DNA of 64,000 nucleotides from IMG/VR virus record IMGVR_UViG_3300044730_001993, positions 23,861 through 87,860 of that record, one strand, 5' to 3'. The notes under the pieces were generated by a model. The model saw only the letters and a program-made list of their open reading frames with translations, had not been told where the DNA came from and searched no databases. A program made the position numbers and the translations under genes. This DNA is from a virus. Positions 8,384 to 64,000 of this stretch are shown piece by piece. Each line of letters opens with the position of its first letter. Position 1 is the first letter of the stretch.

Positions 8384-10354
8384 TCACTTCGGGTCGGTCA
8401 CGAGCGATGCGGCGTTCGGGTCGGTGTTCGGGTCGCCCTTCGCGCGAGCAATGGCCTCGGCGACCTTCTTCGCCTTCTCCGCGGCCTTCTTGCGGGCATC
8501 CTCGACGGCCCCGTAGAGCGAGGCGACGCCCTTGATGGCGTCCTTCTCGCGCTTGTTCAGCGACGCCCACCCGATGCTCGCGAGCTTCATGCACGCGAGG
8601 GCCAACGTCTCGTGCTGGTTCCCCTTGTTGTTGAGACCCTCACCGTACGCGGTGGCGAACCGTGCGCCGAGGGGCTTCTCGGCGAACTGCACGGGGACGC
8701 GGGGCGTGCCGCTGCCGGTCACCGCGTCGGGCGACTCGCGCTCGGTGCGCTCGCCGTTGCCGCCGCCCGAACGTTCGCCGCCGCCCTCGTCGTCGCGATC
8801 GTCGACCGTCGAGTTCGACACGTACTCCGCGGAGGCGCGGCGGGTCGCGATCGCGTCGCGAACGCTCGTGGCGCCCGCGGCGATCATCTCGGCGACGATG
8901 CGGCTCACCTCGTCGGGCGAGGCGCCGTTGCGGCACACTTGCAGGACGGCGTTGATCGAAATCGCGTCGCTGAACACCGCGTCGATCACGTCGGCGTTCT
9001 GCATCGAGAGGCGTTGCCACGAGCGCACCACGTTCTCGGTCCGGTTGACGTGGCGAGCGATCTCGCCGTACGGAGGCGCGGGCGCCTTCGCGTCGTTGCG
9101 GTGGGCCTTCGCCCACTCGCCGATGCGGTGCATCGCCATCGTGTAGAGCCCGCGCTCGCCGATCACCTTGCGCCCGGTGTTTTCGAGCATCACCTCGGCG
9201 GTGTACTCGTCGGCGTTCGCGGTGCCACGCCCGCCGCTCATCACCCTGAAGTCGGGGCGCCAGTTGGCGCCGAGCGTCTCACGGCGCTCCGCGACCACCG
9301 CGCGGAGGGCCTTCACATCGCGGGTGCCCGCGAGGCACTCCCACACGATCGCCCACCACACGAGGCGCGAGCGCCCGACCTTCGTGTAGACGTTCGTGTC
9401 GCCCTTGATCTGAACCACCTTGGGCTCGGTCTGCTGCCCGTCGATGAGCACCGAGAGCAGCATGTTCAGGTGATGCGCGGCGCGGTAGTGACCGCTCGCG
9501 ATGAAACCGTCGGTGTCGGCGTAGAGCGCACGGAGCTCCGAGGCGTCGGACGCGTCGGGGTCGACGAGTCCGCGGGTCGCGTCCGTCGGGGCGACGAACA
9601 GCCCGCCCTCGACGCCTTCCGCGACGATCTTGATGTCCTTCGTAGGGTCCGCGAGGGCCGGAACGCCCTTCGCCACGTTGCCGATGTTGCATGCCTGCTT
9701 CGTGATATCCATGTCGTCTTCTCCTGCCCCTTCATACGCTCCCGCCGTCGGGATTCTTTCATCGACGTGACCGTTTTCTTCTCCGCGCATCACTTCGGCG
9801 TACGCGCGCCTCGCGTGAAACAGTCGCGACATCACCGTGCCCTTCGGGATGCCTTGCTCCGCAGCGATCGCGGTGTACGCCTTGCCGTTCGCCCGCGCGA
9901 TCAGCACGTCACGGTGGGCGGGCGAGAGCGTGTGGATCGCCTCGACGACGCGGGCCTCGTGCTCGCGATCCTGCGCGACGGCGCACGGGTCCGTTTCGTC
10001 CGCGGTCGTGGGCAACTGCGAGTCGTCGCAGTCGTCGATAGAAACCGCGAGAGACGCTTTACGATTGCGGCGGTGGTGGTCGATCGCGAGGTTCGCGACG
10101 ATGCGATAGAGCCACGTCGCGAACGATGCACGACCGTCGAACTCGTCGAGGTGACGCCACACGCGGAGAAACGATTCCTGCACGATATCGTGCGTCGCTT
10201 CGGCGTCGCGGCACGCCCCGAACGCCATCGCGCGGGCGCGCGGCGTATGCCTCCTCACCAGTTCCGTGAACGCGGCGCGGTCGCCCGAACGGGCGCGATC
10301 CACGAGTTCACGGTCGTACAACGCCCCCTGCGCAGACTCGGAAACAGCACCCAT
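8384..10354 (-). CDS. ECF RNA polymerase sigma factor fused in frame to a ParB-like/HTH protein (internal start 9712)
   Basis: sigma2 DIVQESFLRVW/FATWLYRIVANLAIDH and sigma4 GIPKGTVMSRLFHAR; then DGQQTEP...VGRSRL...ENTGR and HTH YGEIARHVNRTENVV. Confidence 0.75.
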   Translation of the reverse strand: MGAVSESAQGALYDRELVDRARSGDRAAFTELVRRHTPRARAMAFGACRDAEATHDIVQESFLRVWRHLDEFDGRASFATWLYRIVANLAIDHHRRNRKASLAVSIDDCDDSQLPTTADETDPCAVAQDREHEARVVEAIHTLSPAHRDVLIARANGKAYTAIAAEQGIPKGTVMSRLFHARRAYAEVMRGEENGHVDERIPTAGAYEGAGEDDMDITKQACNIGNVAKGVPALADPTKDIKIVAEGVEGGLFVAPTDATRGLVDPDASDASELRALYADTDGFIASGHYRAAHHLNMLLSVLIDGQQTEPKVVQIKGDTNVYTKVGRSRLVWWAIVWECLAGTRDVKALRAVVAERRETLGANWRPDFRVMSGGRGTANADEYTAEVMLENTGRKVIGERGLYTMAMHRIGEWAKAHRNDAKAPAPPYGEIARHVNRTENVVRSWQRLSMQNADVIDAVFSDAISINAVLQVCRNGASPDEVSRIVAEMIAAGATSVRDAIATRRASAEYVSNSTVDDRDDEGGGERSGGGNGERTERESPDAVTGSGTPRVPVQFAEKPLGARFATAYGEGLNNKGNQHETLALACMKLASIGWASLNKREKDAIKGVASLYGAVEDARKKAAEKAKKVAEAIARAKGDPNTDPNAASLVTDPK

Positions 10355-47014: not shown

Positions 47015-47468
47015 GTTGCCTCTCGATTGCTGTTGCGATGCGCGTCACGCTGCGAACGTAGATCGCCGAACGTAGGCGCGCTCTACGATATCTACGCCCG
47101 CGAGGCACCGCGCATTCACCGAACTGGTAACGATTCAACGCCCGCGGTGTAGCGCGACAACGGCGCAGGGCCGACGCGAGCGACCGGGCGGCGCACGTCG
47201 CCTGTTGCCAGTCGTCGGTGCCGTACGGGTTGCACGCCGCCAGCGAAGCCCGCGCGTTGCGTAGCCGGTAGCCCGACTCGACGAACACGATCGCGTGCAG
47301 CGTGGCGCAACGTGTGACGCCCGCGTCGGAGCAAGCGTAGTCGACCATCTTCGCGCGCACGACGAACGTGTCGCGGGCCAGCGGGTCGTGCAGCGTGCGG
47401 GCGACGGAGGGGAACAGCGCCGAGAGCGCGAGGGCGACCGCGTGGGCGGTGGGGAGGGAGACGGTCAC
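46995..47468 (-). CDS. secreted lytic transglycosylase-like protein
   Basis: signal-like N-terminus; AIVFVESG and ALNRY motifs. Confidence 0.5.
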   Translation of the reverse strand: MTVSLPTAHAVALALSALFPSVARTLHDPLARDTFVVRAKMVDYACSDAGVTRCATLHAIVFVESGYRLRNARASLAACNPYGTDDWQQATCAARSLASALRRCRATPRALNRYQFGECAVPRGRRYRRARLRSAIYVRSVTRIATAIERQLEQVRH

Positions 47469-47499
47469 TCCGAGTAGACGCGAGTGACGGGGCGGGGAT

Positions 47500-48003
47500 T
47501 CAGCGGCGCGACTTCTTGGGCTTGCGGGCGACGCGCTTCTTGGGCGTGTTCGCTTCGAGCCACTCGTCGAGGTCCGAGTCGTTGCGAACGGACGAACTGA
47601 GTCCGTACGCCTTGCCGTTGTAGCCGTCGAGCCAGAGGATCATGCCGCTCGCGGTGATGTAGGGCGCTTCGTCGTAGCTGCGACCTTCGCTGTCGAACAC
47701 GTCGCGGAGGCGCTGCACGTCGGCCACGCTCTCGACGGAGTACGGCACGGAGAGCACGTCTCCGCCGTCGTACGAGCCGCCGTTGATCTGCCGGACCTTC
47801 GCCTTCTTCGCGACCGCTTCGGACGCCTTCTGTTCGAGCGCCATCACCATGCTCGTGAGGTCGTCCATGTGCGGACGCTTGTACTTCTTGAGCAGCCCCT
47901 TCGCGAACTTCTTCGCGTCGGCGTCGCGATCACCCTTGGCGTCGTCGTCGAAGTTGTCTTGCTCGAACGTGAAGTCGACCGTGCAAATCGCTCGTGTGAA
48001 CAT
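47500..48003 (-). CDS. hypothetical protein with basic C-terminal tail
   Basis: ends ANTPKKRVARKPKKSRR. Confidence 0.65.
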   Translation of the reverse strand: MFTRAICTVDFTFEQDNFDDDAKGDRDADAKKFAKGLLKKYKRPHMDDLTSMVMALEQKASEAVAKKAKVRQINGGSYDGGDVLSVPYSVESVADVQRLRDVFDSEGRSYDEAPYITASGMILWLDGYNGKAYGLSSSVRNDSDLDEWLEANTPKKRVARKPKKSRR

Positions 48004-48124
48004 ACCCGCATCGGAGCACGGGAGGGGGGGGGGTGTCAACGGCGAAAACGTCGCTACGCGGGGAGCGCGTGGCGGGGATTCGCGGCGCTTGCCCGTGCGC
48101 GGCGTGCTCGCGTAGAGTCGCACG

Positions 48125-48646
48125 ATGCTCACCCGCAAGCCCGCTCGCCGACGTTCGCTCCTCAACCCGGAGCCGACGATTCTCTACCCCGACGGGATGC
48201 GCCCGGTGCGAGCCCCGTTCATCATCGGCGCCGAGTACAGTTTCGACAACTTCGTCGATGGCGTTTTCGTACTGAGGTTGGGGTATCGCGGGGCGGCGTT
48301 CGTGCTCGATCGTGCTGGCGCTACGCCGCAGACAGGCGCGGGGCCGGTGGGCATCCACGACGAGGCGGAGTTCTTCGCGATGAAGCCTCGCCTCGTTCGC
48401 GTAGACCGCCAGCGGATTGCATACGACGTGCAGAGCGTTTACACGCCGCTGCTCGACCCCGACGATGATCCTCGCGAGGCCGTGAGTCGCAGCGCCGAAA
48501 TGTTCGCGCACATCACGGGCACGAAGAAGGTCTCGCTCGGTCGCACGAAGGCGTCGGTTGAAGCCGCGCGCAAGCAACTTCGGCGCGACGTTCGCGCCTT
48601 CGCCGAAGCGAACCGCATCGACCCGTACGAGGGCCGCGCCCTCTAG
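48125..48646 (+). CDS. N-terminally tagged hypothetical protein
   Basis: MLTRKPARRRSLLNP; TAGAGT box 6 nt before ATG. Confidence 0.7.
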   Translation: MLTRKPARRRSLLNPEPTILYPDGMRPVRAPFIIGAEYSFDNFVDGVFVLRLGYRGAAFVLDRAGATPQTGAGPVGIHDEAEFFAMKPRLVRVDRQRIAYDVQSVYTPLLDPDDDPREAVSRSAEMFAHITGTKKVSLGRTKASVEAARKQLRRDVRAFAEANRIDPYEGRAL

Positions 48647-48674
48647 GCCGCGCCGACGCCGTGGATTCAGTGGT

Positions 48675-49295
48675 TCAGAATCCGGGGTCGAAATCGTAGG
48701 CGAGCGCGAGACTGTACTCGCGGTGCTTGATGTCGAGCTTCATGCGCTTCGCCGCCGCTTCGATGGCCTTGCGGTCCTTCGGGTGTACTTCATCCCACCG
48801 CAGCCCGCGGGAATGGTGCGCCGTTCCGCTTACGCGAGCCACGTTGCCGTACCGATCGTTCCCGAGTTTTCGGGCGAGCGCGCGGAGCTCGATGAACTTC
48901 TCGTCGTCGAGCTTCGCCTTCGCCTCCTGCTTCGCCTTCGCGGCGAGCCCCGCGGGCGAACGGCAGTAGTCGCACGGGCCTGCCCAGTGCCCGGTGTCTT
49001 CGTTGTAGCCTGCGTCGCACTCACACGCGGTCGGAGCGGCCTTCGGCTCGGGCGCGAGAAGCGATTCGGGCGACGCGCCTACGGACGTCATACGCATCGT
49101 ACCGCCGCCGGATACGGCGTACCACGATCCGATTTTGTAACGCTCACCCATCGTCTTGCGCGCAAACTTGCGTGCGCCAGCGAGGGTCTTGAAGTGTCGC
49201 GTCGCACTGTACCCGTCCGACGACTTGAGATAGATGGTGATCTCGCCGGAGTTGCGAACCGAACGTCGGACTCGCGTCTTGCTTTTCTTGCTCAT
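48675..49295 (-). CDS. N-terminally tagged hypothetical protein
   Basis: MSKKSKTRVRRSVRNSG; TATGAT box 8 nt before ATG. Confidence 0.7.
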   Translation of the reverse strand: MSKKSKTRVRRSVRNSGEITIYLKSSDGYSATRHFKTLAGARKFARKTMGERYKIGSWYAVSGGGTMRMTSVGASPESLLAPEPKAAPTACECDAGYNEDTGHWAGPCDYCRSPAGLAAKAKQEAKAKLDDEKFIELRALARKLGNDRYGNVARVSGTAHHSRGLRWDEVHPKDRKAIEAAAKRMKLDIKHREYSLALAYDFDPGF

Positions 49296-49583
49296 GGGGT
49301 AGGATCATACCGGAGAGCGCGGGGCGGCACAACTTCGTTGTTGCTGCGCCTTCTCACCCATCGCTCCGCCACCACTTGCCGCCGTTGAACCGGAAACCGT
49401 TCGCTCGAAGCCACGACTTCTCGGCATCGGCGGTGTGCCGACCGAAGCGGTCTGCCATCCACCCGTACTCGTACTCAGAATGCGGAGGGTTGCCCGATAA
49501 CACGACGCGTCGCAGTCGCTCCGTCGCGAGAGACGGCGGAGCGTCGGCGAAATACTCTCCGAACGTGGTGGAACTAATCGTTC

Positions 49584-49803
49584 TCACTCGCCGCGCGCCC
49601 GCGATCGTTCGAGTTCCGTCGCGGTCGCCGACACCAGCGCCGCGACGGCGGCGAGGGCGTCGTAGAGCATCGGGAGAGCCGCCGCGCGGCACCCCGCGCC
49701 GTAACGCATTTCGGCCTCCGCAGCGGCGAGAAGGCGCCTCGCTTCGGCCAGCGCCGAAGCCTCGCGGTCGGTGAGTTGCCCGCTCACTTGCGGTTCCGCC
49801 ATT
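49584..49803 (-). CDS. small hypothetical protein
   Basis: MAEPQVSG... just beyond the IscB element end; start approximate. Confidence 0.45.
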
Positions 49804-49843
49804 GGGCGGTAGTCACGATTTGCCCGAGCGGTTGCGCCGCTAT

Positions 49844-51226
49844 TCACGGCGGAAGGGGAGCGGATTTTCGGACCGCGACGGCATCGCGCTTCTCCTCTTG
49901 CCACGCATATCGGTATCCGTCGGCGCGTTGCAACACGCCGCAGTGTTTCCAAATCACGTCGATCCTCTTGTCTTTAGCGCAAATGGCGAATTGACCATTC
50001 GCCCGCACGGCAACGCGCCCGACGTACGTTCCAGCGTACTTGCCTCGCGGCGGTGTAGCACGGACCATATCGCCAGTGCGGAATCCACGCACGGACTTCT
50101 CGCGCATCTTCGGAACGCCGCGAGGGAAACCGTAGGCGTCCGAGTGTTGCCGTTGGTACGTGCCGCGCCCCGTGCTGTAAACGTAGAGCGTTTGCGTGTC
50201 GGCACCAATCACACCGCCGACGTTACCCGCGCACACGGCGTCGTTGGCGTGCGTCTTCGGAACGTTGAAACGGTGGCGGTTCCACTTCGTTCGCCCGCCA
50301 CTTGACGCCTCGACGGGCACCCCGAGAGACCGCAGCGCGCGATCGAGCGCCCATCGGGTCGAGTTCACCGCCGCCGCGTCGCGCAGCGACTCCTTGAGTC
50401 CTGCGAGAATGCGCGCCGCGCGTTTCGGGTCACGTTGGAGAAACACCGCCAGTGGTTGCGCGCCCTTGCGCTGGTTGCAGGGAACGCAGGCGGGCACGAG
50501 GTTGCTCGGGCGACTGCTTCCGCCGCTCACCCGCGGCACGACGTGATCGAGGTTCAGCGCCACGTTCTCGGCGTCGCAGTAGGCGCACGAGCGACCCCAC
50601 TTCTCCAACACCCACTCCCGAGTCTCGTAACCTGCGAGCGTGCCTTGCCGGTATTCCACGCCGCTGATCTCCGGGTTCTGCATCAACTGCGTGTCGAAAC
50701 GCACCCGCTCCACGCTCACGGCGGCGACGGGATACCAGCGCATGAGACGACGAGTCCATGAGAGCGTCGTTTCGACGCGGTGGTTGAGAGACGGTCGCAG
50801 CGTGCCCTTCGCGGGTCGGCGATTGCTGAAACGCGCCGGTCGGTAGCGAAGGTTTGCTAGGCGACGGCGCCTTCTGCTAGACGATCGCCTCTCCATCTGC
50901 CCGCGGATAACGTCGCCGCGGTGCGTGAGTTCCATCTTGAACAGGACGACGCGCGTCGGGCCGTCGCCTTCGCTGGCGGCGGGAACCTCGCGGACGACGG
51001 CGATGCCCGTCGTCTTGCTGCCGGGATCTTCGCAGACCCGGACGGGTTGCACGTCACCACCGACACGATCCTTGAGACGGATCACGAACGGCGTGTGATG
51101 CGCCACCACCGCACGCCCCGCACGGAGCAACTGGCGTGCTCGCGCGGGATGGCACGGCATCAGCGGAACGCCGCGCTTGTCCAGTACCGGAACCCACGCT
51201 TCTTCGGAACGATTCTTCTCGATCAT
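49844..51226 (-). CDS. iscB: RNA-guided endonuclease IscB
   Basis: PLMP, RuvC-I EDPGSK, Arg-rich bridge helix, RuvC-II ERVRFD, HNH CAYC..DHVVP..CNQRK, RuvC-III HANDA. Confidence 0.95.
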   Translation of the reverse strand: MIEKNRSEEAWVPVLDKRGVPLMPCHPARARQLLRAGRAVVAHHTPFVIRLKDRVGGDVQPVRVCEDPGSKTTGIAVVREVPAASEGDGPTRVVLFKMELTHRGDVIRGQMERRSSSRRRRRLANLRYRPARFSNRRPAKGTLRPSLNHRVETTLSWTRRLMRWYPVAAVSVERVRFDTQLMQNPEISGVEYRQGTLAGYETREWVLEKWGRSCAYCDAENVALNLDHVVPRVSGGSSRPSNLVPACVPCNQRKGAQPLAVFLQRDPKRAARILAGLKESLRDAAAVNSTRWALDRALRSLGVPVEASSGGRTKWNRHRFNVPKTHANDAVCAGNVGGVIGADTQTLYVYSTGRGTYQRQHSDAYGFPRGVPKMREKSVRGFRTGDMVRATPPRGKYAGTYVGRVAVRANGQFAICAKDKRIDVIWKHCGVLQRADGYRYAWQEEKRDAVAVRKSAPLPP

Positions 51227-51537
51227 TGGCGTTACCGCCTCAGTTGGGGCCTTGCGGCCTTGTCGTGACGGAACCGCGAGGCACCGCGGTTCGCTCCCCT
51301 CGTGAATGTCGATCGTCGCCCATGTGCGTACCCGTTTCTGTCTGACCCGACGTGACTACTGCACGCACTGCAAGTGGGTACGGACTGAGGAAGCATCCGT
51401 ACGTTGCCCGAGGCAAGCGTTCCGATCGACGTAGCGAGGCTCGAACGGGTTGCCAACCCTACCCTCGCTAACACTGGTAAACATGGGCTTTCTCAGTCTC
51501 CTTAGAAAGCCTCCGCCCGAAGGCGGAGGTCGATTAC
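51227..51537 (-). ncRNA. omegaRNA scaffold, copy 1 (guide from the flank above 51537)
   Basis: non-coding, hairpin-rich, nearly identical to 63769-64000. Confidence 0.8.
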
Positions 51538-52039
51538 ACGCCGATGGGAGCGACGCGAATAGGAGCGTCGTGGTGCATGTCTCGCGACACTATAGCGCGA
51601 TTCCATCCAGCAATGTCTCGTTTTTTGTCTTTTCACGCATCGCCGCGCCGTTGCCGACGTACTGGCCTCCCGCGCGAAGGTCGACGGGGGCACCCGTTTC
51701 GAGCGCAGTGCGGATCGTGCCGCCCGTTCCGCGAGCGCGCCCGCCGAAGCCCGCGCCGCGATACCACTCGGTGTACTCACCTCGCGCGTGTTCGGCATCG
51801 AAGCCGCCGCACGCGAGGAGCGACTGCGCGAGGGCGACCGCCATCTGCGTGTCGTCCGTGAACGCCCCCGCCTTCTCGCCGTCGGGTCCGAGGCCGAACT
51901 GGCGCCCGCCGTCGTCGCACGCGAGAAACGTGTTGTCGGGGTCGTGGCACCACGAGTAGCGGGCGCGGTCGTCGCGCGATTGCTCGAAGGGCTTGCCGAG
52001 CGCGTCGGCGGTCGCGAGTGCTGTGAGAACGTGACGCAT
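51538..52039 (-). pseudogene. ADP-ribosylglycohydrolase (ARH/DraG family), N-terminal half only
   Basis: ADALG, FTDDTQM, GNGAAMR, then an 80-nt insert, then RVAPIG, then the IscB element. Confidence 0.8.
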
Positions 52040-52193
52040 TACGATTCCTCGTTTTCGATGCCGATTAGCACGGCGGTGGTGAGAAGAAAACAGCACAAGG
52101 CCATCGGGTCGAGACGCGACGCTGCCAGCGCGAAGAACGCGCCGTCGATCGCGTAGAGGCACTTCGTCGCCGCACGTTCGAGCGAGACAACGA

Positions 52194-52658
52194 TCACGGA
52201 TGCACCCGCCCCGCGAGGAGCGCGTCGAGGCAAGCCTTCGCGTGCTCTCGCGCTGCGGTGAAGTCCGCGAACGACACCTCCGTTTCGGTGCGCCCGTCGC
52301 CCGTCGGCACGAGCCCGCCGTGTGCGTGGCGCAGCGTCACCTTGCGCGACGTGAGGCTCGACTCGATCACGAACGGCCCGACGGTGGCGCTCTCCCGCGC
52401 CTCGCGGGCCTTCTCCGCGACCGTGGCGGCGGGAGTCCCGACGGGGGCACCGCGGAGCGTCTCGAACAGCCACGAGTCACGCGGCGTGATCGTGCGCCCG
52501 TCGTCGTCGCGCCACACGACGATGCCGCGCTTCACGGAGACCACCTCGGCGGTCACCTCGACGTGCGGCGAGGGGCCGACGTGCTCGCGCCTCACCACCC
52601 GGAGGGTGACGTTGCCGTCGGGGGCGAGCGCGAGGAGTTGTGTGACGGTGGGGATCAT
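52194..52658 (-). CDS. hypothetical protein
   Basis: ATGA overlap. Confidence 0.55.
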   Translation of the reverse strand: MIPTVTQLLALAPDGNVTLRVVRREHVGPSPHVEVTAEVVSVKRGIVVWRDDDGRTITPRDSWLFETLRGAPVGTPAATVAEKAREARESATVGPFVIESSLTSRKVTLRHAHGGLVPTGDGRTETEVSFADFTAAREHAKACLDALLAGRVHP

Positions 52659-53434
52659 CCCCATCCGACGTTGTAGCGGCGCCTGTATTCAGCGAAATCT
52701 GCGATGGCCTGCGCATCGAGGAACGCGCACTCTTCGTTGCGGGAGTACCGGACGCAGTGATCGATCACGTCGAGCGCAACGGCGACGGGCGCGAGCAATG
52801 GCGCGCAGTAGCCGTAACGCATCTGCACTTCGCCCACCGATGCGACGGACGAGAACGAGACTTCGCCAGTGACGATGCGACGCGCCAGTTCAGCGTTCGG
52901 GCGAACGATGAACCTCACGCTTCGGGTCGGGCCGAAGTGATCGTGGTCGCCTGTCGCGTACACGCCCACACCGCGCTCGTCGATCGACACGATGAACGTC
53001 GCGCGACCGATGCGCCACCGCGGCGCCTTCGTCGTATGCGTGAGAACCTCCCACCCGCAGCGGTCCTTGCCCGAGAGGTACGGCTCGGCGCTCGGGGCGC
53101 CGTACCGTTCCGTGAGCGTCGCAACGATCGCAGCGTACGTGCTCGCGGGGTCGTCCGTCACGCCGCGCAGTTCGCGAACGAGCGGCGCCCGACGCGCGGT
53201 GTCCTGAGCCTTCGCTGCGGCGACTACGCGGTCGTTGCGAGCCTTCTCGGCACCGTACTCGCTCGCGCGCCGAAGGTCTTGCGGGTCGATCGCCTTGCCC
53301 GTGCGCGCAGCGTCGGCGATGCTCCTCGCCGTAGCGTTGAGCACGGCCTCGATGCGCTCCGACTCCTTGCGGGCAGCGTGCGTGGCGGCGTTGAGTTTCG
53401 CGAGTTCTGCGAGAACGTCGATCGTGTGTCTCAC
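52655..53434 (-). CDS. hypothetical protein
   Basis: GGAGG RBS, GTGA overlap. Confidence 0.65.
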   Translation of the reverse strand: MRHTIDVLAELAKLNAATHAARKESERIEAVLNATARSIADAARTGKAIDPQDLRRASEYGAEKARNDRVVAAAKAQDTARRAPLVRELRGVTDDPASTYAAIVATLTERYGAPSAEPYLSGKDRCGWEVLTHTTKAPRWRIGRATFIVSIDERGVGVYATGDHDHFGPTRSVRFIVRPNAELARRIVTGEVSFSSVASVGEVQMRYGYCAPLLAPVAVALDVIDHCVRYSRNEECAFLDAQAIADFAEYRRRYNVGWG

Positions 53435-62353: not shown

Positions 62354-62400
62354 GACTTGCCAGCGCGGGTGCACAGCCATTCATGGCGGTGGGGAAGCGC

Positions 62401-63768
62401 CTATCGGTTAGTAACCGCATCGTTTTTCTCCTCGCGCCACGCGTAGCGGTAGCCATCGGCGCGCTGCAACACGCGGCAGTGTTTCCAAATCACGTCGATC
62501 CTCTTGCCCTGCGCATAGACCGCGAATTGACCTTTCGCGCGGACTGCGGCACGTCCGACGTGCATACCGGCGTGTTTTCCCTTCGGCATCACGGCGCGCA
62601 CGATATCACCCGTGCCGAAGCCCCGTACGCGCTTCTCACGCATCTTCGGAGCGCCACGAGGGAAACCATAGGCGTTCGAGTGTTGGCGTTGATACGTGCC
62701 GCGCCCCATGCACTCCACGTATAGCGTCTGCGTGTCGGCGCCGATCACGCCGCCGACGTTTCCCACGCACACGGCGTCGTTGGCGTGCGTCTTCGGAACG
62801 TTGAAGCGGTGGCGGTTCCACTTCGTTCGCCCGCCCGATGCTGCCTCGACGGGCACCCCGAGCGCCCGCAGTTCACGATCCAGCGCCCATCGCGTCGAGT
62901 TCATCGCCGCCGCGTCCCGCAGGGGCTTCTTGAGCCCCGCGAGAATGCGTGCCGCACGCTTCGGGTCGCGCTTGAGGAACGTCGTCAGTGATTGCGCGCC
63001 CTTCTTCTGGTTGCAGGGCACACACGCGGGCACGAGGTTACTCGGACGATTGCTCCCGCCGCTCACTCGCGGGACGACGTGATCGAGGTTGAGCGGCACG
63101 TTCCCCGCGTCGCAGTAGGCGCACGAGCGGCCCCACTTCTCCAGAACGTACTCGCGCGTCTCGTATCCGGCGAGGGTGCCTTGCTGGTACTCCACGCCGC
63201 TGATCTCCGGGTTCTCCATGAGTTGCGTGTCGAAGCGAACGCGCTCGACGCTCACGGCGGCGACGGGATACCAGCGCATGAGGCGCCGCGTCCACGAAAG
63301 CGTCGTGTCGAGGCGCGTACGCAGCGAAGGTGCAAGGCGACCCTTGCGGCGCGACGATGCGCGGTTGCTGTACCGTCGCTCACGGTAGCGCGTGTTCGCG
63401 CTGCGACGGCGCTTGCGGTTCGCCGAACGTTGCCCCATCTGCTTGTGGACGTCGGCGCCGCGGTGCGCGAGTTCCATCTTGAACAGCACGACGCGGGTCG
63501 GGCCATCGCCGTCGCTGGCGGCGGGAATCTCGCGGACCACGGCGATGCCCGTGGTCTTGCTGCCGGGATCTTCGCAGACGCGGACGGGTTGAACGTCGCC
63601 GCCCACGCGATCCTTGAGTCGGATCACGAACGGCGTGTGGTGCGCCACCACGGCACGCCCCGCACGAAGCATCTGACGCGCTCGCGCGGGATGGCACGGC
63701 ATCAGCGGGACGCCACGCTTGTCCAGCACCGGAACCCACGCTTCTTCGGAACGATTCTTCTCGATCAT
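62401..63768 (-). CDS. iscB: RNA-guided endonuclease IscB
   Basis: same PLMP/RuvC/bridge helix/HNH motifs as copy 1, start MIEKNRSEE. Confidence 0.95.
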   Translation of the reverse strand: MIEKNRSEEAWVPVLDKRGVPLMPCHPARARQMLRAGRAVVAHHTPFVIRLKDRVGGDVQPVRVCEDPGSKTTGIAVVREIPAASDGDGPTRVVLFKMELAHRGADVHKQMGQRSANRKRRRSANTRYRERRYSNRASSRRKGRLAPSLRTRLDTTLSWTRRLMRWYPVAAVSVERVRFDTQLMENPEISGVEYQQGTLAGYETREYVLEKWGRSCAYCDAGNVPLNLDHVVPRVSGGSNRPSNLVPACVPCNQKKGAQSLTTFLKRDPKRAARILAGLKKPLRDAAAMNSTRWALDRELRALGVPVEAASGGRTKWNRHRFNVPKTHANDAVCVGNVGGVIGADTQTLYVECMGRGTYQRQHSNAYGFPRGAPKMREKRVRGFGTGDIVRAVMPKGKHAGMHVGRAAVRAKGQFAVYAQGKRIDVIWKHCRVLQRADGYRYAWREEKNDAVTNR

Positions 63769-64000
63769 TGGCGTTACCGCCTCAGTTGGGGCCTTGCGGC
63801 CTTGTCGTGACGACCGCGGAGTGGCTCCCCCGCGGTGCTCCCCTCGTGAATGTCGATCGTCGCCCATGTGCGCACCCGTTTCTGTCTGACCCGACGTGAC
63901 TACTGCACGCACTGCAAGTGGGTACGGACTGAGGAAGCATCCGTACGTTGCCCGAGGCAAGCGTTCCGATCGACGTAGCGAGGCTCGAACGGGTTGCCAA
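63769..64000 (-). ncRNA. omegaRNA scaffold, copy 2 (partial)
   Basis: near-identical to 51227-51457. Confidence 0.8.

Follow-up and report, generated by a model that had tools for sequence, protein, structure and literature searches.

Organization of the Locus

An IscB element lodged in the remains of an ADP-ribosylglycohydrolase (ARH)-family gene was analyzed in a 64,000-nucleotide stretch of phage DNA (the window), which comprises bases 23861-87860 of the 87,860-bp IMG/VR virus record IMGVR_UViG_3300044730_001993. The record stems from lake water, has a GC content of 67.3%, and was estimated by CheckV to be 77% complete. Positions given below are those of the window, and features lie on the minus strand unless stated otherwise. 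Read along this strand, the 5' part of the ARH gene was followed by an insert of 80 nt, 20 nt of further ARH sequence, an omegaRNA of the HEARO family, and iscB. The N-terminal 134 codons of the ARH gene (51638-52039; Pfam PF03747) ended with those for GNGAAM, and the insert (51558-51637) had no counterpart in intact alleles. The 20 nt of ARH sequence next to it, CGCGTCGCTCCCATCGGCGT (51538-51557), constitute by position the guide of the omegaRNA, whose scaffold (51289-51537; Rfam RF02033) preceded an apparently intact iscB gene (49844-51226) recognized by its RRXRR and HNH domains. The far end of the element (49817-49843) was placed by alignment with a second copy, and its last 18 nt finished with GGCAAATC. 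Directly behind it stood GTGA (49813-49816), the candidate target-adjacent motif (TAM), and then two ARH remnants (49784-49811), namely TACCGC (49811-49806, Tyr and Arg codons) and CGCAAGTGA (49792-49784, the last codons and the stop).

The Interrupted ARH Gene and Its Intact Alleles

The ARH gene started at position 52039 and matched PF03747 with an E value of 2.8e-19 over profile positions 3-128 of 287. A full domain has about 290 positions and includes a C-terminal metal-binding part; the fragment lacked this part, and no second PF03747 match was present in the 87,860-bp record. Thus, the C-terminal half of the gene was absent also beyond the far end of the element, as a preliminary description of this DNA had reported. 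The codons for GNGAAM, GGCAACGGCGCGGCGATG, ended at position 51638, and the reading frame continued into the insert, which in the ARH frame encoded REKTKNETLLDGIAL and then a TAG stop codon (51592-51590). Fifteen contigs are on record for the resulting truncated product of 149 amino acids, which includes the insert-coded tail. Beyond the insert, CGCGTCGCTCCCATCGGCGT together with the next G encoded RVAPIGV.

In intact alleles, i.e. those encoding proteins 98, 90, and 89% identical to the fragment and the allele of locus L005, the sequence GNGAAMRVAPIG was uninterrupted. The motif GNG(A/T)AMRVAPIG was accordingly contiguous in the full-length homologs P0001, P0002, P0003, P0006, and P0018. P0018 is an intact ARH of 317 amino acids that was identical to the fragment at 132 of 135 positions; the corresponding identities were 90% for P0001 and 89% for P0002. 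P0018 is recorded on a single contig of 4,673 bp and reads RVAPIGMW rather than RVAPIGVW. L005 is a syntenic metagenome contig with ~84% DNA identity that carried neither insert nor element. Its junction read GCGATG, then CGCGTCGCGCCGATCGGCGT and GTGGTATCGC, with GTGG directly 3' of the stretch matching the guide. The absence of any break in these five proteins and in L005 showed that the 80 nt are a true insertion.

On the other side of the element, the stretch 49792-49584 aligned with the last ARH codons of L005 and with the gene that follows. About 525 nt of ARH were lost between TACCGC and the terminal codons with the stop. CGCAAGTGA overlaps the start of the next gene, and this gene retained its GTG start codon at the edge of the deletion. 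Comparison of GTGA-C-TACCGC in the window with GTGG-TA(T/C)CGC (Val-Trp-Tyr-Arg) in intact alleles revealed that the Trp codon TGG had become TGA and that one base had been added. Judged from its sequence, ARH is therefore a dead gene whose 134-codon N-terminal part is undamaged.

The Insert

The insert extended from 51637 to 51558 and had a GC content of 48.8%, compared with 67.3% for the whole record. Since the dinucleotide CG is common to both junctions, its boundary may slide by 2 nt. A contig of 853 nt from run X13 (51488-52340) covered the insert together with the junction without any difference, and the left junction was crossed, again without differences, by contigs of runs X15 and X16. 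The same arrangement in contigs of three runs, none of them marked as a source of the record, showed that the insert is not an artefact of one assembly. Among the contigs of four runs, no joint was found that skipped the insert or the element; these contigs are short and shallow and thus uninformative about the absence of such a joint.

A source of the insert was not found. The 87,860-bp record contained no second copy, exact matches were absent from IMG/VR, a search in distant mode returned no match among 50,697 phage records, and the fetched loci gave only chance matches of 12-15 nt. The missing ~23% of the genome could hold the source. The possibility that the insert encodes a structured RNA was rejected, its fold having a z score of -0.28, which is not significant. 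The last 15 nt of the insert (51558-51572, encoding HDAPI) and the first 15 nt of the guide (51543-51557, encoding RVAPI) stand in tandem and in frame and were alike at 11 of 15 positions. This likeness hints at slippage, template switching, or a diverged duplication as a possible origin. An origin by tandem duplication was not supported by local alignment, because its score of 14 was equaled in 29% of 2000 shuffles and was thus not significant.

Resemblance of the Insert to the Phage's Own Promoters

A class of sigma70-like, leaderless promoters was recognized in the phage itself. Its members consist of T(T/A)GC.., a spacer of 16-18 nt that usually ends with GTG, and TA(G/T/A)(C/T)GT; a start codon lies 4-10 nt downstream, as for leaderless mRNAs. 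When both strands of the 87,860-bp record were searched with the pattern TTGNNN-N14-19-TAG[CT]GT, seven sites were obtained, all of them with an ATG 4-10 nt downstream. Six headed open reading frames (ORFs) for 102-193 amino acids, and the seventh was the insert.

In the insert, a -35-like box, TTGCTG (51608-51613), was preceded by the A-rich stretch GAAAAGACAAAAAAC. The -10-like box TATAGTGT (51587-51594), with TAGTGT at 51592-51587, followed after 15 nt, and an ATG (51578-51576) stood 8 nt behind it. Thus, both boxes and the distance to the start codon agreed with the class. The ATG is in frame with RVAPIGV and opens an ORF of 14 amino acids (MHHDAPIRVAPIGV). Two direct repeats of CGAGACAT (51620-51613 and 51584-51577) bracketed the promoter-like core (51577-51620). 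The boxes were oriented into the guide, the omegaRNA, and iscB. From the spacing seen in the family and from typical promoter-to-start distances, a transcript is predicted to begin near position 51580, i.e. just ahead of the ATG (51576-51580) and ~23 nt before the 20-nt guide. The preliminary description had called the insert an AT-richer, promoter-like block that splits the ARH motif and contains TATAGTGT, the in-frame ATG, and the repeats. Each of these sequence details was found in place on the minus strand, and the match to the phage's own leaderless class made the likeness to a promoter stronger than could have been known at that stage.

A two-block position weight matrix (PWM) was trained on 13 sites of the class, with the insert excluded. 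The insert ranked 14th of ~175,600 positions, and only 12 training sites and one untrained site scored higher. When the insert was shuffled 5000 times by mononucleotides and 5000 times by dinucleotides, its score of 15.5 bits was reached once and never, respectively. Only three of 162 AT-richer 80-nt windows attained this score; two of these overlap the insert, and the third is a training site. A scan for terminators between 49000 and 53000 gave no terminator-like site.

An untrained site of the same class was located on the plus strand at 48113-48160, with TTGCCC, a spacer of 18 nt, TAGAGT, and an ATG. It ranked 11th in the whole record and precedes an ORF (48125-48646) within a 2.1-kb stretch (47458-49584) that has no counterpart in L005.

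The IscB Element and Its Second Copy

The omegaRNA was identified as a HEARO match extending from 51537 to 51289 (73.5 bits, E value 3.5e-14, model positions 1-211), which is below the gathering score of the family (83). It immediately preceded iscB in the same orientation and started at the end of the element, which begins with GTAATCGACC at 51537. IscB itself (460 amino acids) contained the Pfam domains RRXRR (6.7e-63), HNH_5 (1.5e-10), and HNH (4.9e-10), and phmmer matched it to the solved structures of TbaIscB, HfmIscB, and OgeuIscB. In the alignment, the Asp of EDPG, the DH of the HNH domain (DH...N), and the THANDA motif were all present, residues which we take to be catalytic. The protein thus looks functional as far as its sequence tells.

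A second IscB element (copy 2; 62354-64000), 84% identical to the first, lay on the same strand and was cut off inside its omegaRNA by the end of the record. The two IscB proteins were 84% identical, with a dN/dS of 0.18 at a dS of 0.57; therefore, both copies have long been kept functional. Contigs resembling copy 2 ran past the end of the record and shared the scaffold start GTAA(T/A)CGACC, followed outward by a different flank, of which 6 nt could be read. Because the scaffold start is common and the flank differs, the guide-side end of the element was placed at 51537. A 40-nt stretch of the omegaRNA of copy 2, used to look for more of its upstream flank, had no match in IMG/VR. The preliminary description had likewise given 51537 as an end of the element and had called it the left end. 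The position was corroborated, and the name has to be changed, since Meers et al. designate the end beside the omegaRNA as the right one.

At the opposite side, the copies aligned through GGCAA(A/G)TC (49817 in copy 1 and 62354 in copy 2) and were followed by GTGA-C and ATGA-C, respectively. The far ends accordingly read GGCAAATC/GTGA in copy 1 and GGCAAGTC/ATGA in copy 2 (ATGA at 62353-62350; slashes mark element boundaries). The hairpin-forming sequence CGCCGTGAATAGCGGCG (~49850-49834) straddles the stop codon of iscB (TGA, 49846-49844). Folds of the far-end hairpins gave z scores of -1.77, 0.03, -1.33, and -0.02, none of them significant. A longer element reaching to a CCGCC-CAAT-GGCGG hairpin was considered and dropped, because empty sites in Ralstonia phages yield the order hairpin, 17-18 nt, end, ATGA.

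The precision of the insertion was assessed by comparison with L005. The left flank agreed at 18 of 20 positions, with GT/GT at the boundary, and the right flank read GTGA-C-TACCGC against GTGG-TA(T/C)CGC before the ~525 missing nt. No match to TnpA (PF01797) was obtained in the 87,860-bp record at E values up to 10. According to Meers et al. (bioRxiv 10.1101/2023.03.14.532601) and Goltsman, most IscB elements lack tnpA in cis, and the absence of TnpA from the record thus does not exclude that the element belongs to the IscB elements.

The closest relatives of IscB were at most 58% identical in genome_contigs (best 80 of 245 relatives), at most 51% identical in IMG/VR (14 loci), and less than 60% identical in cultured phages (111 records). 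Twelve contigs, the longest of 180,664 bp, are recorded with the exact IscB of copy 1; the phage may be much larger than the 87,860-bp record. Between 48736 and 49103, the summed contig depth was 100-320 in X13 and X15 and 29-75 in X16, compared with ~3-8 elsewhere. Some stretch within the ORF at 48675-49295 also occurs in DNA that is far more plentiful in those lakes.

Relatives in Ralstonia Phages and the Target Motif

The cultured Ralstonia phages Claudette/Alix, Adzire/Simangalove, and Heva (MT740731, MT740725, and MT740742) carry an IscB that is 51% identical over 96% of the protein. In GenBank, its gene is labeled as encoding a hypothetical protein or an HNH endonuclease. Nearly identical IscB-HEARO elements occupied different places in these phages, which belong to three genera. 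The HEARO matches reached 111-120 bits, and the ends were sharp, with the layout flank/GTCAACC...CAGACTG/ATGA. Sibling phages lacking the element were available for two of them, namely Gervaise for Claudette and Bakoly for Adzire. Their flanks were 100% identical, and their empty sites read flank/ATGA. Because ATGA is present in the empty sites, it is part of the target and not of the element. The arrangement of a hairpin, 17-18 nt, and the element end was common to these elements and the one in the window. Taking the flanks in the window and in the Ralstonia phages together, we take RTGA to be the natural TAM of this element.

In Claudette, the element is located 8 nt after the stop codon of ssb, and its guide appears to be expressed by read-through without a new promoter. 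In Adzire, a second copy of the 13-nt far-end motif (L128, ~371-383) was noticed ~830 nt upstream of the IscB element; it could represent a solo end or what is left of a further copy.

What the Guide Can Match

In IscB elements, the guide is the flank outside the transposon end beside the omegaRNA, and the target motif lies at the other end, as described by Meers et al. (bioRxiv 10.1101/2023.03.14.532601). The preliminary description had also taken the 5' flank of the scaffold as the guide; the literature, the comparison with the Ralstonia phages, and the different flank of a copy-2-like contig all agreed with this assignment. Within the window, the 20-nt guide had one exact match and no other match with up to two mismatches; a match with three mismatches at position 8978 was attributed to chance. 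In IMG/VR, no exact protospacer was found.

It had been proposed further that the IscB is a domesticated OMEGA nuclease whose promoter-driven guide is aimed at the intact ARH alleles of related phages, so as to exclude or convert them. Close relatives with intact ARH do exist (P0018, 98% identical over 135 amino acids, and the syntenic L005), and the insert stands exactly at the 5' edge of the 20-nt guide, so that the guide still matches alleles without the insert. The match is nonetheless imperfect: of the three intact alleles compared as DNA, L005 differed from the guide at positions 9 and 12, L006 and L007 differed at positions 12 and 18, i.e. 2 of 20 in each case, and P0018 has Met where the last two bases of the guide encode part of Val. 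A compatible TAM in the intact alleles had been named beforehand as a check, and this check tends to fail. All intact alleles carried GTGG after the guide match, and the Trp residue encoded there was kept in P0001, P0002, P0003, P0006, P0018, and L005-L007, against RTGA at both copies in the window and at three of three sites in Ralstonia phages. A working ARH cannot carry RTGA at this place, because TGA would replace the conserved Trp codon by a stop.

Nor did the element look domesticated, in which case its guide would match a locus outside its own flank or its transposon ends would be lost. By default, every IscB insertion has a guide identical to the flank beside it, so that the match to ARH is no sign of aiming, and both copies kept similar hairpins and RTGA ends. 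The absence of TnpA and the presence of two diverged, intact IscB copies under purifying selection would fit domestication, yet the former is weak evidence in a record that is only 77% complete. The idea that the guide is aimed at intact alleles, and with it that of domestication, was thereby weakened. The cognate target would instead be a guide match followed by RTGA, i.e. the element-less form of the same dead allele.

The element begins with GTAA (51537-51534) where a target would have GTGA (as at 49816-49813), which places a near-TAM with one mismatch beside the guide DNA. This difference may be how self-cutting is avoided.

Interpretation and Order of Events

We consider it about an even prospect that the locus holds an IscB element which lacks TnpA, has its own promoter, is kept by selection, and maintains or homes itself. 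What is left of the phage ARH gene houses an IscB-omegaRNA element of the IS200/IS605 (ISC) type, and the insert would be a working copy of the phage's own sigma70-like leaderless promoter (TTGCTG, 15 nt, TAGTGT, start at ~51580). Guide, scaffold, and iscB would then share a transcript of their own beginning ~23 nt ahead of the guide, and their expression would no longer depend on read-through from the dead ARH gene. The nuclease would cut the element-less dead allele, either at the donor joint or in a sibling genome, and would in this way secure the persistence and spread of its own element ('transposon homing'). Killing of phages with a working ARH is less likely than such self-maintenance or homing.

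Several points weigh against this interpretation. Regarding the promoter, the spacer in the insert has 15 nt instead of 16-18 nt, the -10-like box is preceded by CTA and not by the GTG found in 9 of the 13 family members, and the score of 15.5 bits is lower than those of all 12 well-scored training sites (15.8-27.8). A generic sigma70 scan of the region from 49000 to 53000 gave no promoter-like site. In addition, part of the training set came from a pattern chosen with the insert already in view, which leaves some circularity. The guide could also be expressed by read-through from the ARH operon without any new promoter. By eye, no promoter-like box was seen in the ~40 nt upstream of the scaffold in the three Ralstonia-phage elements; thus, a dedicated promoter is not a general feature. 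Regarding the target, the right flank (GTGA-C-TACCGC) is not a clean match to the empty site (GTGG-TACCGC in intact alleles), and RTGA was taken as the TAM from five natural flanks, two in the window and three in Ralstonia phages, and by analogy.

The ARH gene was probably dead before the element arrived, because GTGA is impossible in a working ARH. The inactivating event may have been the insert, with its stop codon, or else the TGG-to-TGA change. Two orders are conceivable: the promoter arrived beside an element already in place, or a promoter that had previously killed ARH was there when the element landed behind it. If the element came first, an insert leaving exactly 20 nt would be favored by selection for an expressed guide, provided that insert-less alleles must still be matched. 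If the insert came first, the explanation is that elements landing just behind promoters are expressed and persist. In both cases, it is unlikely that the proximity of insert and element arose by pure chance.

According to a more far-reaching version, to which we assign rather little probability, the element captured a phage promoter at the outer edge of its guide, so that a transposon RNA that had depended on read-through became a self-contained unit of promoter, fixed guide, scaffold, and nuclease, an RNA-guided cassette for homing or competition among sibling lake phages.

A rather improbable alternative is that the insert is an ordinary moron-type phage promoter that serves downstream genes and killed ARH, and that IscB came to lie 20 nt behind it through a later, unrelated event or was retained only because elements behind promoters are expressed. 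The same promoter class indeed heads six other genes, and upstream of the insertion site there is no lesion other than the insert with its in-frame TAG. Moreover, a gene unable to carry GTGA while working was probably dead when the element inserted, and the gene after ARH has kept its GTG start at the edge of the deletion. Against this, it is improbable that an element settles by chance no more than 20 nt from an 80-nt insert when the genome exceeds 88 kb, unless selection or a mechanistic link is involved. It is equally conceivable that one TGG-to-TGA substitution inactivated ARH and produced the motif ahead of both insert and element, and no allele with the insert only was seen in the short contigs of four runs.

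We regard it as unlikely that the insert is non-functional filler, a scar of repair or template switching in a decaying pseudogene, its likeness to a promoter and its position being coincidental. The 3' part of ARH is certainly decaying (a stop, one added base, and the ~525-nt deletion), the spacer is off by 1-3 nt, and the fold of the insert (z score of -0.28) is not significant. The 11 of 15 identities between insert end and guide start hint at slippage without being significant in the local-alignment test. Such a scar would hardly be expected to rank 14th of ~175,600 positions with a score reached by 0-1 of 5000 composition-matched shuffles, to be oriented toward the element, and to present an A-rich tract before the -35-like box and an ATG at the usual distance of the family. 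Finally, a domesticated nuclease aimed at intact ARH alleles is quite unlikely in view of the GTGG and the guide mismatches described above.

Significance and Comparison with Known Systems

Since an IscB guide is encoded beyond the boundary of the element, a promoter for it cannot travel with a mobile IscB element. How natural omegaRNAs with the right 5' end are transcribed is therefore a real gap in knowledge. The locus offers a concrete case, with a putative promoter of a local class 20 nt from the scaffold, a predicted start, a defined guide, and RTGA as candidate TAM, and intact as well as disrupted natural ARH alleles occur in the same lakes. Among the paper listings and cited passages covered by a literature search, no description of a promoter inserted before an IscB guide was found. 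If the promoter works, it represents one route from a transposon-borne guide RNA to an autonomous unit, a step that the ancestors of CRISPR-Cas9 must have taken. If, beyond this, promoter capture is the true explanation, the locus is a natural intermediate between an insertion sequence-borne omegaRNA and a CRISPR-like, independently expressed guide. If the promoter does not work, the locus amounts to a commonplace insertion of IscB into a phage gene undergoing decay. Should IscB tolerate G at the fourth position of the TAM, the idea of a guide aimed at intact ARH would be revived.

The closest parallel is GstIscB of Geobacillus stearothermophilus as presented by Meers et al. (bioRxiv 10.1101/2023.03.14.532601), where the omegaRNA is likewise upstream of iscB and bounded by the transposon end, with the guide outside. 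There, the proposed role of the nuclease is cleavage of the element-less joint, after which the element is regained by recombination. Unlike GstIscB, the element in the window is phage-borne, has no TnpA in the record, carries a promoter-like insert at the edge of its guide, and has a TAM-side flank that is mutated and partly deleted. With the Ralstonia-phage elements it shares the phage as carrier and the far-end hairpin 17-18 nt from the end. In those phages, by contrast, the upstream flanks are ordinary phage sequence without a visible promoter-like block, and the insertions are clean.

A second parallel is provided by the genes for the free-standing homing endonucleases of T-even phages, such as SegF and SegB. 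In PMC13565253, these enzymes are described as cutting the allele that lacks them in a coinfecting genome, whereupon their genes are copied in by repair, and homing of OMEGA systems into coinfecting phages is discussed under the term 'transposon non-restorative homing'. The locus resembles these genes in that a phage nuclease gene would have an expression signal of its own. It differs from SegF and SegB in that recognition would depend on an RNA guide and a 4-nt motif instead of a protein and in that the candidate intact alleles lack this motif. TldR (bioRxiv 10.1101/2023.11.30.569447), an example of the domesticated relatives of OMEGA nucleases, finally, resembles the IscB described here as a transposon-derived, RNA-guided protein that is kept by phage or host and has a fixed guide. 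TldRs are nuclease-dead repressors with guides matching another locus, whereas the IscB element analyzed here has intact nuclease motifs and takes its guide from its own flank.

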